Origin: a virus
Taxonomy: Duplodnaviria; Heunggongvirae; Uroviricota; Caudoviricetes
IMG/VR virus record: IMGVR_UViG_2529292726_000015
Location: 1 to 39,429 of that record
Strand: one strand, 5' to 3'
DNA: 39,429 bases
Positions 2,030-35,882 of this stretch are shown here, one piece after another. The position numbers and the translations under genes are program-made. Every line of letters begins with the position of its first letter. The stretch's first letter is position 1. The notes below the pieces were generated by a model. It worked only from the letters and a program-made list of their open reading frames with translations. It had not been told where the DNA came from and searched no databases.

Positions 2030-2354
2030 TCACCAGTTAGTGGCTGGTGATCGGGTGTCAACTAGAGCCTTCAAAGATGCTCCGGGCATATTCCCCTTGC
2101 GGGTATTGTATTACGCCTCTCCACCCGACCTTTGTACGGATGTGACTATGCCAAATTGCAGGCATAAAAAAGCCGCAAAGCTATCGGGTGCGGATGACCG
2201 CTTTGAAGTTCTAGTGCGGTCAGTATGCGATAGCTCTGGCGGATTTGTCAAATCATGTAGCCTTTATCCTGCTGTAAGCCGCGCCATTCGGGATTTTCCC
2301 CATATTTGGGGAAAACTATCTGCGAAGTATTCACCTTTGACGGCAAGTTGCAGG

Positions 2355-5767: not shown

Positions 5768-5916
5768 TTCCTGCGATACCACGGAAGGTTGATAGCTGAT
5801 TTCATCGCTTTATTTGCTTCAAGCCACATTTTTGAATCACCAATAAATCGGGCTATTACTGCTTTGTTCTGTGCAGCACGAAGCATCTGGTGATTGATGG
5901 CTATTTCATTGCGCAT
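5764..5916 (-). CDS. kil: Kil-like host cell-division inhibitor (50 aa)
   Basis: Below ORF-track cutoff; MRNEIAINHQMLRAAQNKAVIARFIGDSKMWLEANKAMKSAI...; the FIGD-KM motif resembles lambda Kil (TFIGDEKMFREA). Confidence 0.55.
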   Translation of the reverse strand: MRNEIAINHQMLRAAQNKAVIARFIGDSKMWLEANKAMKSAINLPWYRRK

Positions 5917-6035
5917 AACGCCTCCAGTTGTTTCTTTGCTGCTCTGATTAATTGTTTAACTCGGCGTGATAATTCAGATTCGTGCGGGTAGAAAGCGGAC
6001 ATGACGCCGCTACCCGCGAGCTGAAAGTGCATCAT
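5901..6035 (-). CDS. cIII: cIII-like protease (FtsH) inhibitor (44 aa)
   Basis: Below ORF-track cutoff; MMHFQLAGSGVMSAFYPHESELSRRVKQLIRAAKKQLEALCAMK; the ESxLxRxxxxL amphipathic segment resembles lambda cIII; overlaps kil start. Confidence 0.55.
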   Translation of the reverse strand: MMHFQLAGSGVMSAFYPHESELSRRVKQLIRAAKKQLEALCAMK

Positions 6036-6110
6036 GGGTAACTCCTTATATTTGATTGCATAACGAAAACGCCTCAAGTGAAGCGTTATTGGTATGCGGT
6101 AAAGCCGCGC

Positions 6111-6479
6111 TCAGGCGGCTTTGATAGTCATATCATCTGAATCAAATATTCCTGATGTATCGATATCGGTAATTCTTATTCCTTCGCTACCATCCATTGG
6201 AGGCCATCCTTCCTGACCATTTCCATCATTCCAGTCGAACTCACACACAACACCATATGCATTTAAGTCGCTTGAAATTGCTATAAGCAGAGCATGTTGC
6301 GCCAGCATGATTAATACAGCATTTAATACAGAGCCGTGTTTATTGAGTCGGTATTCAGAGTCTGACCAGAAATTATTAATCTGGTGAAGTTTTTCCTCTG
6401 TCATTACGTCATGGTCGATTTCAATTTCTATTGATGCTTTCCAGTCGTAATCAATGATGTATTTTTTGATGTTTGACAT
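6111..6479 (-). CDS. Hypothetical PL-operon protein (122 aa)
   Basis: Intact ORF in the leftward early operon between N and cIII; no recognised family. Confidence 0.5.
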   Translation of the reverse strand: MSNIKKYIIDYDWKASIEIEIDHDVMTEEKLHQINNFWSDSEYRLNKHGSVLNAVLIMLAQHALLIAISSDLNAYGVVCEFDWNDGNGQEGWPPMDGSEGIRITDIDTSGIFDSDDMTIKAA

Positions 6480-6504
6480 CTATTCATATCCTCATAGATA
6501 AAAA

Positions 6505-6532
6505 ATCGCCCTCACACTGGAGGGCAAAGAAG
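6505..6532 (-). terminator. Rho-independent terminator (minus strand) within PL operon
   Basis: Minus-strand stem GCCCTC-CAGTGT-GAGGGC followed by GATTTTTTATC. Confidence 0.45.
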
Positions 6533-6629
6533 ATTTCCAATAATCAGAACAAGTCGGCTCCTGTTTAGTTACGAGCGACATTGCTCCGTGTATTCACTCG
6601 TTGGAATGAATACACAGTGCTTATTCGTA

Positions 6630-7100
6630 CTAATAAAACACCCAGTTTTCTGTTTCTTGGTTGTGTCCAAAGTTATATTCAATATCTGGTGTTGATGTAT
6701 CAATATCCTTCATCCCATCAACAAGAGTTGATACAACAGCCAAATCTTGTTTGATTCTCATTAAATGGTATTTCTTCCGGCGCAATAAACTCTCAATGGC
6801 AAGTTTCTTCGTTGGGAATGCAAAAGATCTTTCTGCATTTTTTGCTACTTTCTTAATTGCATATCTATTTCTCTTTTGTTTCCATTCCTGTAACCACTGA
6901 TTTGGTGCTGGTTTAAAATTAACAATCCAATGCGCAGGAACCAACCATGCATAATGCTCTGTCTGATGAAAAGCTATATATTGAAGTGCGAATATTTTGA
7001 TTCCATCTTCTTCAACTGTCGCCTGGAATCTCCAGAAAACAGGCATTCCATCATGTTCAGTTTCTGATTCAGGAAAAGGTACGCTCCATGATATTGTCAT
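6630..7100 (-). CDS. Hypothetical PL-operon protein (156 aa)
   Basis: Intact ORF immediately downstream of N; AT-rich; no recognised family. Confidence 0.5.
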   Translation of the reverse strand: MTISWSVPFPESETEHDGMPVFWRFQATVEEDGIKIFALQYIAFHQTEHYAWLVPAHWIVNFKPAPNQWLQEWKQKRNRYAIKKVAKNAERSFAFPTKKLAIESLLRRKKYHLMRIKQDLAVVSTLVDGMKDIDTSTPDIEYNFGHNQETENWVFY

Positions 7101-7108
7101 ATCTCACC

Positions 7109-7408
7109 TCAAATAAGTGGTTTGCTGCCTAATTTCATTTTCTGGCGACCAACACAAGTCACACCCATTTCACTGCGTGGCTTGCGGTAGTAAATACGAT
7201 TCTGTTTACTCTCGACTTCTTCTGTCTTCTTGCAGCGAAGGTTTCCGAGTGATGCTGCTTTATCTGCTCTGACGCAACCAGAGAGCTTTAGCGCAATTTT
7301 TCGCGCCAGTCGCTGCTCTTGCATTTCCTGTTCACGTTGAGCCTGTCTGCGTGCTCTGCGGCGATTTCTGGCGTTATCGTCAGCCAGATATGTAATGACT
7401 ACTGTCAT
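7109..7408 (-). CDS. N: Antitermination protein N
   Basis: Arg-rich motif DNARNRRRARRQAQ near the N-terminus; C-terminus YYRKPRSEMGVTCVGRQKMKLGSKPLI resembles lambda N (WYSKPGERGITCSGRQKIKGKSIPLI); first gene of PL operon. Confidence 0.8.
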   Translation of the reverse strand: MTVVITYLADDNARNRRRARRQAQREQEMQEQRLARKIALKLSGCVRADKAASLGNLRCKKTEEVESKQNRIYYRKPRSEMGVTCVGRQKMKLGSKPLI

Positions 7409-7804: not shown

Positions 7805-7895
7805 CTTAAATTTAAGATCTCTTTAATTAATGGTCAAGAGTATTTTTGAAGAAAACTTAAATTTTCTTTCGTAACTTAAGTTTGGCTTTGATTTT
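7805..7895. promoter_or_regulatory. OL/PL operator-promoter region
   Basis: Repeated ATTTAAGA/CTTAA-type half-sites resembling P22 c2 operators, between the cI terminator and nutL. Confidence 0.5.
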
Positions 7896-7902
7896 TAAAG
7901 GA

Positions 7903-7930
7903 AATAAAAAAGGGGCGAATGCCCCCTTAT
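7903..7930 (-). terminator. Rho-independent terminator downstream of repressor gene
   Basis: Minus-strand stem AAGGGGGC-ATTC-GCCCCTT followed by a T7 run. Confidence 0.5.
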
Positions 7931-8577
7931 GGAAGGTTTGCTAGTTTTGCATCGACAACTACGCCGATGATTTTGCAGTTTCCGTTGATCTCGATCATCG
8001 GATATTGTGGGTTAAGTGGTTTTAGAAACTTCCTGCCTGCATCAATAACTAACTTCTTGAAAGTTGCCTCGTTTTCTCCTTCGAGCTTTGCAACTACCAG
8101 TTTCCCGTTACGCGGCTCTACTTCAGGATCGACGAGTATTATCATTCCTTCAGGGATACTGAGACCGGCCGGAGCCGTCATTGAGTCTCCCTTCACGTCC
8201 AACCAAAACGAATCTTCTGAACAGTCTACGGTTGTATCGTACCAGTTATCTATTGCACGCTTATGATATGGTTCTACAGCTTCCATCCAGCATCCTGCGC
8301 TCACCCAGCTAATCAGAGGGTATGACCCTCTTGGATCATGCCTACTGTGATAGGCAATGTTTGAAAGACTTTCCTCTCCTTTCATCAGATAGTCAGGGGA
8401 ACACTTCAACGCATTAGCCAGGGCGAGAAGATTCTCTCCATTTGGCTCTGTCTCAGAGCGTTCCCACTGAGATATGGCAACATTAGACACGCCGACCATC
8501 TTTCCAAGTGCGGCCTGCCTGATCTTGAGTTCTTTTCTCCGAGCGCGAATGCGCTCTCCCATCAATTGAGTTTTCAT
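7927..8577 (-). CDS. c2: Prophage repressor, P22 C2-type (HTH + LexA-like cleavage domain)
   Basis: 216 aa; MKTQLMGERIRARRKELKIRQAALGKMVGVSNVAISQWERSETEPNGENLLAL... near-identical to P22 C2 as recalled. Confidence 0.92.
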   Translation of the reverse strand: MKTQLMGERIRARRKELKIRQAALGKMVGVSNVAISQWERSETEPNGENLLALANALKCSPDYLMKGEESLSNIAYHSRHDPRGSYPLISWVSAGCWMEAVEPYHKRAIDNWYDTTVDCSEDSFWLDVKGDSMTAPAGLSIPEGMIILVDPEVEPRNGKLVVAKLEGENEATFKKLVIDAGRKFLKPLNPQYPMIEINGNCKIIGVVVDAKLANLP

Positions 8578-35650: not shown

Positions 35651-35882
35651 TTCGCTTGGATGCAGTAGTCAAAGAGATTGCGATTACCATTTTAAGACCA
35701 AATTTTGTTCATGGCGAATCATTTGGCACGAACGAAAAATTGAGAAGAGAAAGAGTATTCAGTGGCAAGCGCACGTTTTCAGAAGTGATGCTTGATGCGG
35801 CAAAGAAATCAAAACAGTGAAGCCCCAACTGCTGGAACAGTCAGGGCTTCGGTTGTCGGTAAATCCGTGGAGAAAAACCAAC

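Follow-up and report, generated by a model that had tools for sequence, protein, structure and literature searches.

Three modules between N and cIII of a P22-like phage of E. coli: a gp45-family gene, the PreS/tL2a RNA block and ea10

The DNA considered here, a stretch of 39,429 nucleotides (IMG/VR record IMGVR_UViG_2529292726_000015) referred to below as the window, is by sequence a Lederbergvirus-type lambdoid phage of E. coli, a P22-like podovirus. Over the first 24 kb, megablast aligns it with the P22-like E. coli phages IME10, HF4s, CUS-3 and JEP4 at 95-98% identity, and the P22 immI antisense RNA sar is matched by Rfam at 35816-35882. The features that surround the interval of interest are collected in Table 1. 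Since the genes from the repressor to an SSB-like ORF, and with them a pL-like promoter, are all on the minus strand, the locus is read as a lambdoid PL operon. The promoter candidate lies just downstream of the CI-like repressor gene, a position that fits the cI / N layout. The N-type antiterminator also shows a weak match to the Pfam N_peptide model (20.2 bits, below the cutoff). Beyond cIII are found kil, two small HK97-gp42-like ORFs, erf and the SSB-like ORF. In the listed cIII ORF the Pfam match sets in only with residue 16; translation of this gene therefore probably begins at an internal ATG near 6035.

Table 1. Features of the PL operon from the repressor gene to cIII (window coordinates)
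Feature	Position	Strand	Basis or remark
CI-like repressor gene	7927-8577	-	upstream of N (ORF list)
pL-like sigma-70 promoter candidate	7809..7837	-	TTGACC-17-TAAATT, consensus scan only
N-type antiterminator, 99 aa	7109..7408	-	phrog_271, E=4e-36
HK97 gp45 / 933W ST933Wp19 (L0079) family gene (orf156), 156 aa, ATG	6630..7100	-	
12-bp stem-loop	6588..6615	-	repeat finder and RNA fold
PreS (LPR1) small RNA, 87 nt, 3' end = tL2a	6500..6586	-	identity to lambda, published primers
tL2a intrinsic terminator	6500..6527	-	8-bp GC-rich stem 6506-6527 and U-tract 6500-6505
ea10, 122 aa, ATG	6111..6479	-	lambda Ea10 identity, DUF2528
Second terminator-like hairpin, ea10/cIII gap	6068..6087	-	consensus scan only
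cIII	5901..6077	-	Pfam cIII, 4.1e-30

Two ORFs of 156 and 122 aa separate N from cIII. The initial annotation had placed them in the PL operon directly downstream of N and in an AT-rich stretch, and both the positions (exact to the nucleotide) and the composition are borne out; the GC content is 36.5% in the 156-aa ORF (orf156) and 38.5% in ea10, versus 46.8% for the whole window. The terminator-like hairpin and the additional inverted repeat that were described between the ORFs are real as well. The statement that neither ORF belongs to a recognisable family fails for both, the shorter one being Ea10 of lambda (DUF2528) and the longer one a member of phrog_1636. Profile and structure-based searches, which had been proposed as a check, gave family matches for both ORFs and a PDB match for neither. 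Confident homology to a known early protein, with Ral and SieB as examples, had been named as grounds for giving the finding up; it exists for the 122-aa ORF, and this half of the finding is therefore refuted, whereas no similarity to Ral or SieB was seen. The interval can then be described as a mosaic accessory segment in which a gp45-family gene directly follows N and is followed in turn by a boundary block (the 'bsq4' of Sf6) and by ea10. The identification of these three modules (gp45-like gene, PreS/tL2a block, ea10) and of the mechanism of the PreS/tL2a block can be given with considerable confidence. Each element is 97-100% identical to, and annotated in, lambda, HK97, 933W or Sf6, and in terms of sequence the interval is ordinary and known.

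Over its full length (residues 1-156 of 156) the 156-aa ORF matches phrog_1636, with E=1e-110. Proteins 97-99% identical to it are encoded by HK97 (gp45, 97.4%), H-19B, 933W (ST933Wp19, L0079; 98% for the 933W group), BP-4795, Stx2 phage 86 (orf57) and phi24B (vb_24B_11c), and all of these named relatives are annotated as hypothetical. A literature search found no functional work on L0079, vb_24B_11c or HK97 gp45 and nothing relevant on a hotspot in this region. Sequence searches with orf156 against Pfam, NCBIfam, PADLOC and the PDB gave no meaningful match; a PADLOC hit to Cas1_II (E=0.0098, 13 bits) was rejected as noise. Homologues down to 55% identity are found in Pectobacterium, Brenneria, Cronobacter and Rosenbergiella. 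In an alignment of 22 family sequences 40 columns are invariant, and dN is 0.25-0.29; synonymous sites are saturated, so that dN is not accompanied by a dN/dS ratio. Orf156 is on these grounds a genuine protein-coding gene.

The family reaches well beyond these close relatives. When 1.84 billion cluster representatives were searched with a profile, 87 proteins were returned at E<=1e-3, the majority with lengths of 130-155 aa. Positions conserved in the resulting 71-sequence alignment are an aromatic residue with R24 after it, G33, E/Q46-T47, K83, K87, R91/92, A94-F95, A101 and R108-K109. All 71 aligned members match phrog_1636, and many also match phrog_13631 and phrog_25384 (none of these with an assigned function); Pfam gave no meaningful family match across the 71.

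With the 71-sequence alignment as input, AlphaFold modelled orf156 at a pLDDT of 94.5 and a pTM of 0.81. An earlier model from the shallow 22-sequence alignment (pLDDT 59) was discarded. In the confident model, residues 19-30, 33-46 and 50-55 form three long strands and residues 83-86 a further one; there are also short helices, and a long helix of 33 residues spans 98-130. Residues 61-120 carry a net charge of +13, and both termini are acidic. The gp45-like protein would thus be soluble and of the alpha/beta type, with a long helix towards the C terminus and a basic patch that appears to be conserved family-wide. A Foldseek search of the PDB with this model found no fold match (best E = 0.5). 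A fold search of BFVD returned 14 matches at E<1e-3, all of them uncharacterised proteins of diverse phages. These include the virulent phages Erwinia phiEa2809, Achromobacter phiAxp-3 and Delftia RG-2014, as well as phages of Rhizobium, Cellulophaga and Tenacibaculum. What is new here is the extension of the gp45 family to about 90 cluster representatives, the confident model and the conserved basic patch.

The position of the gene is also informative. The ATG of orf156 is found 8 nt after the N stop codon, and the TGA of N lies inside the Shine-Dalgarno sequence (TGAGGTGA; TGAGGTGAGATATG); orf156 is probably translationally coupled to N. The corresponding genes of HK97, 933W, phi24B and H-19B have the same length and the same order, N - gene - tL2a. 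The gap after N differs, being 8 nt in the window and 58 nt in 933W and HK97, and in HK97 the order is N-gp45-terminator-cIII, without ea10. More diverged homologues occupy comparable sites. In Salmonella phage NX263 and related contigs the homologue comes first and a gene for a ParB-type HTH protein follows; in a Vibrio phage it is flanked by a Cro-like HTH gene and a Rha regulator; and in a Pectobacterium prophage it adjoins xis/int. Members of the gp45 family are usually located at the start of early operons or near regulators.

Transcription of the interval can be outlined from the same signals. A consensus scan of the minus strand from pL (7809) to tL2a (6527) detected no other promoter- or terminator-like site, a statement that applies to sites of the intrinsic kind, rho-dependent ones being invisible to such scans. 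Since tL2a is the first intrinsic terminator-like site after the pL-like promoter, N, the gp45-like gene and PreS may share an immediate-early transcript. With no terminator-like site detected between pL and tL2a, PreS may in this phage be made without N antitermination.

What the gp45-like protein does at that stage can be proposed only tentatively. Early in infection it might bind nucleic acid, or else a host factor of acidic character, in a role that would be regulatory or concerned with takeover or counter-defence rather than with exclusion; for nucleic-acid binding the basic patch is weak evidence. In the same cautious spirit, the gp45-like protein may stand for a widespread phage-specific family whose fold has no solved counterpart and whose genes open early operons in temperate and virulent phages alike; it could be a new class of immediate-early takeover or counter-defence factor, or a nucleic-acid-binding regulator that acts alongside N, Cro or Rha.

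A more specific proposal is that the protein is a counter-defence factor, anti-restriction or anti-abortive-infection, in the slot that holds ral in lambda and Sf6. In those two phages ral is one of the genes that immediately precede this PreS/tL2a block, and the slot is hypervariable between close relatives, the N-kil slot of HF4s carrying entirely different cargo (a TM protein and a phi80 Agt-like gene). The gene is predicted to be expressed first, together with N, and the presence of the family in virulent phages indicates a role that is not specific to lysogeny. Set against this are the lack of similarity between the orf156 family and Ral (hhalign probability 0.1; Ea10 shows no similarity to the family either), the basic character of the orf156 protein, unlike that of an acidic DNA mimic, and the fact that no supporting literature was found. 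Pfam, too, gave no match to Ral; its sole hit among the two ORFs was DUF2528, in Ea10. Counter-defence is a live alternative, though a rather doubtful one.

Between the two ORFs is the part of the interval for which most can be said. Over window positions 6480-6620, 139 of 141 bases agree with the ral-ea10 spacer of lambda, with full identity over 6499-6620; the two mismatches fall after the terminator and ahead of the start codon of ea10. On the 5' side of 6620 the sequence is unrelated to lambda, the upstream neighbour of PreS being ral in lambda and the gp45-like gene here. At 6527-6506(-) the consensus scan detected TTGCCCTCCAGTGTGAGGGCGA with TTTTTT after it, which resembles an intrinsic terminator. 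The repeat finder gave arms at 6583-6599 and 6604-6620 for the inverted repeat, described earlier as 9 bp, and in the RNA fold it becomes the 12-bp stem of Table 1 with one G-U pair and the loop CAAC. The 135-nt intergenic RNA is unusually stable, with a fold z of -4.95 and none of 200 shuffles folding as well.

These 141 nucleotides include the small RNA of lambda known as LPR1 and renamed PreS. In the window PreS is the 87-nt minus-strand sequence from 6586 to 6500, which reads GAGCAATGTCGCTCGTAACTAAACAGGAGCCGACTTGTTCTGATTATTGGAAATCTTCTTTGCCCTCCAGTGTGAGGGCGATTTTTT. Its ends are set by the published LPR1 cloning, qPCR and mutagenesis primers, which match the window exactly; the wild-type sequences of P810, P839, P889, P1142 and P1143 are exact matches that include the seed mutated in LPR1-M1/M2. 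The 87 nt and the 12-bp hairpin on the 5' side are 100% identical to lambda, and sequence, terminator and U-tail are the same in the two phages. The 87-mer by itself still folds into the terminator hairpin (z = -3.58), and its 3' end has the Rho-independent terminator and U-tail that form the Hfq-binding module, tL2a. At the gathering threshold of Rfam 15 the intergenic RNA has no family; the only matches, sar and sRNA-Xcc1, are elsewhere in the window.

The action of this RNA has been worked out in lambda. PreS is an Hfq-dependent sRNA of the lytic cycle only, present as species of ~88 nt and ~68 nt; it pairs with the leader of host dnaN, which opens the ribosome-binding site and raises DnaN, and it represses alaS (bioRxiv 10.1101/2024.10.31.621285). 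Deletion of PreS or mutation of its seed reduces both the replication of phage DNA and the yield, an effect that depends on Hfq (bioRxiv 10.1101/2024.10.31.621285; the work is reviewed in PMC12197685). By analogy with lambda, PL transcripts that end at tL2a, or that are cut from read-through RNA, would yield PreS in the window phage. Hfq would bind it through the terminator and U-tail, PreS would base-pair with the host dnaN leader and free the ribosome-binding site, and the resulting rise in the beta-clamp level would boost phage DNA replication. Production of PreS, binding by Hfq and activation of dnaN are in this way carried over from lambda to the present phage as an inference from sequence identity. 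The hairpins that the initial annotation had taken as punctuation, tL2a and PreS/LPR1, are nevertheless the best-understood functional element of the interval.

The 12-bp stem-loop is a separate matter. The 3' base of its stem is two nt from the PreS 5' end, and the conserved boundary block has this stem-loop as its 5' edge. It is present in 81 of 88 loci compared; 82 of the 88 carry orf156. The full lpr1 deletion made in lambda keeps this hairpin (primer P969; bioRxiv 10.1101/2024.10.31.621285). It could set a processing site, or it could cap the upstream mRNA at its 3' end.

The block as a whole is widely distributed. It is found in 385 phage records, nearly full length in 318, and it has been annotated in several of them: in Sf6 as 'bsq4; boundary sequence' and as 'terminator; homology to phage lambda; tL2A', and in HK97, HK620, HK75 and HK106 as 'terminator'. 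Among IMG/VR loci, which came from a search with a shallow alignment and are near-identical loci only, the hairpin/PreS block follows orf156 in all 73 that have enough downstream sequence, and ea10 is the next gene in only 27 of these 73, cIII or other genes being found otherwise. In lambda and Sf6 the upstream neighbours of the block are ral-type genes. Because the block is kept while its neighbours vary among loci and phages, the RNA block is the constant part and the flanking protein genes are the exchangeable ones.

Such a distribution invites the view that the intergenic block is a terminator and a recombination 'boundary sequence' only, conserved through its use in crossovers and not as an sRNA. 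It was annotated as a boundary sequence years ago, and it is located exactly at mosaic joints, with ral, gene 34 or gp45 upstream and ea10, gene 33 or cIII downstream. However, work in lambda has shown a discrete RNA, bound by Hfq, whose effects on dnaN and on phage yield depend on the seed. Here seed and terminator agree with lambda at every base, and the sRNA and boundary roles are not exclusive. That the block is nothing but a boundary is improbable. An invariant PreS and 5' hairpin between swapped flanking genes fits an sRNA/terminator that doubles as a recombination boundary.

Downstream of the block, the 122-aa ORF is identical to lambda Ea10 (lambdap45, NP_040621) at 122 of 122 residues. 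It matches Pfam DUF2528 (PF10800) with 160.6 bits (cutoff 22, 1.8e-47), its residues 16-119 covering model positions 1-104 of 104, and phrog_646 at E=3.8e-71. The tL2a - ea10 - cIII order is that of lambda, where the gene is likewise directly downstream of tL2a/PreS and upstream of cIII. The protein thus shows no difference between lambda and the window, the carrier here being a P22-like podovirus. The Ea10 family is essentially limited to Enterobacterales and their phages. In lambda, Ea10 is an abundant early protein that was formerly taken for Kil (PMC3961180), and a genome-wide CRISPRi screen of lambda found it non-essential (PMC10695390). Ea10 and the gp45-like protein would both be placed among non-structural early accessory proteins, and Ea10 may bind some host or phage partner.

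The initial annotation had named exclusion, its leading idea, and host takeover as typical of genes at this position. In the exclusion reading, either ORF or both would act in superinfection exclusion or defence and guard the lysogen. In favour of this idea, SieB of lambda and gene 17 / sieB of P22 are encoded in the equivalent region. Lambda Ral and SieB and P22 gene 17 share the N-cIII slot and are early and non-essential, but they have no sequence or profile similarity to the window ORFs. A search for SieB relatives gave no Pfam, PHROG or PADLOC match for either ORF, and PADLOC returned no meaningful match of any kind. SieB-type proteins are membrane proteins, whereas the two proteins here are soluble: both are hydrophilic and without a hydrophobic segment (GRAVY -0.53 and -0.27). 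Since the two ORFs follow N on the PL strand and have no promoter-like site of their own there, they should be repressed in a lysogen. Ea10, moreover, is abundant as a lytic early protein (PMC3961180). The lack of its own promoter and of a membrane segment, together with the PL location, makes an exclusion role unlikely for the gp45-like gene, and for the pair of ORFs the idea is improbable, the evidence speaking mildly against it.

Least tenable is the notion that Ea10 is a single-stranded-DNA-binding protein, which goes back to the legacy label 'ssb' ('ssb / putative single-stranded DNA binding protein') in the records of lambda, 933W and phi24B, the latter two also carrying ea10, and which is opposed by the absence of any match to SSB/OB-fold models in Pfam and NCBIfam (DUF2528 only), by the strongly acidic composition (pI 4.28; 22 D+E vs 8 K+R), by the lack of a PDB relative with either the single sequence or a 28-sequence profile, by the current RefSeq name 'hypothetical / DUF2528', and by the separate SSB-like ORF that adjoins erf in the window (compare the HF4s annotation). 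The 'ssb' label of Ea10 is probably wrong.

The interval can now be annotated as ea10, a gp45-family hypothetical protein and PreS/tL2a, none of them novel. The interest that remains is in the gp45 family and in the conserved hairpin 5' of PreS, the RNA being the only element with an experimentally shown function (in lambda). A deep alignment and a confident model without a known analogue make the gp45 family a reasonable candidate for early-protein functional screens, and the family is present in the medically relevant Stx phages, among others. If the tentative role in takeover, counter-defence or regulation is correct, the gp45-like factor would be delivered on an immediate-early transcript whose 3' end is PreS.

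The N gene, directly upstream of the gp45-like gene, encodes a protein with an unusual arginine-rich N-terminus (DDNARNRRRARRQAQREQ) whose score for the Pfam N_peptide family lies below the cutoff. The C-terminal half of this protein recurs in an IMG/VR locus, L003, where it stands behind a different, P22-like N-terminus. Elsewhere in the window, an Rfam match to sar, the antisense regulator of ant in P22 immI, marks the virus, as judged from its sequence, as P22-like and as having an immI region. A second Rfam match, to sRNA-Xcc1, is placed within the early-left/ea region of the phage.

Coordinates of the features discussed
Feature	Location	Strand	Details
sRNA-Xcc1 (RF02221)	2041-2130	-	Rfam, 65.4 bits vs gathering score 53, full length
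cIII ORF as mechanically called	5901-6077	-	58 aa, TTG start
Second terminator-like hairpin	6068-6087	-	AACGCTTCACTTGAGGCGTT then TTCGTT; between ea10 and cIII
12-bp hairpin	6588-6615	-	immediately 5' of PreS
N	7109-7408	-	
sar RNA (RF00262)	35816-35882	-	Rfam, 83.9 bits
Example locus, ea10 optional	L003 3584-3805		
Example locus, ea10 optional	L004 3666-3800		
N-to-kil slot, phage HF4s	L088 5464-7070		
Gene annotated 'DNA polymerase III beta subunit', Salmonella phage NX263	L091 4865-5401		

The 12-bp hairpin that precedes the sRNA PreS is kept together with it in lambda, 933W and almost every locus compared. The published PreS sRNA excludes this hairpin, and the deletion made by the lambda authors left it in place. 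It could be a processing determinant or a 3' stabiliser for the upstream mRNA, or it could be a mere portion of a recombination boundary. The second hairpin, on the far side of ea10, may be the counterpart of a further member of the lambda tL2 cluster or of the cIII leader structure. The cIII ORF itself is probably overlong at its start as called, since the Pfam match begins only at residue 16, which fits an internal ATG-ATG start (MMHFQLAG...).

In NX263, the early operon that contains the gp45 homologue also has a gene labelled 'DNA polymerase III beta subunit'; this gene is without Pfam support, and the label is probably a mis-annotation. Such a label is curious beside dnaN being the target of PreS. 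In a few database entries (e.g., P0140 and P0230), DUF2528, the family of Ea10, seems to be joined in one protein with a PF06064 or a Kil (PF06301) domain. The likeliest explanation is that the prophage genes in question were truncated or mis-called, and that the fusions are not genuine.

ea10 is an optional gene in loci that carry the gp45-like gene and PreS, being present in 27 of 73 such IMG/VR loci (L003-L082). In loci that lack it, cIII (lambda-type or HK97-type) or other genes come immediately after PreS. HF4s, a close P22-like relative, has an N-to-kil slot without the gp45-like gene, PreS or ea10; the slot holds instead a 'TM helix-containing protein' together with an 'antitoxin' of 322 aa that resembles phi80 Agt. 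With these different genes occupying the same position, the N-to-kil slot is a cargo hotspot.
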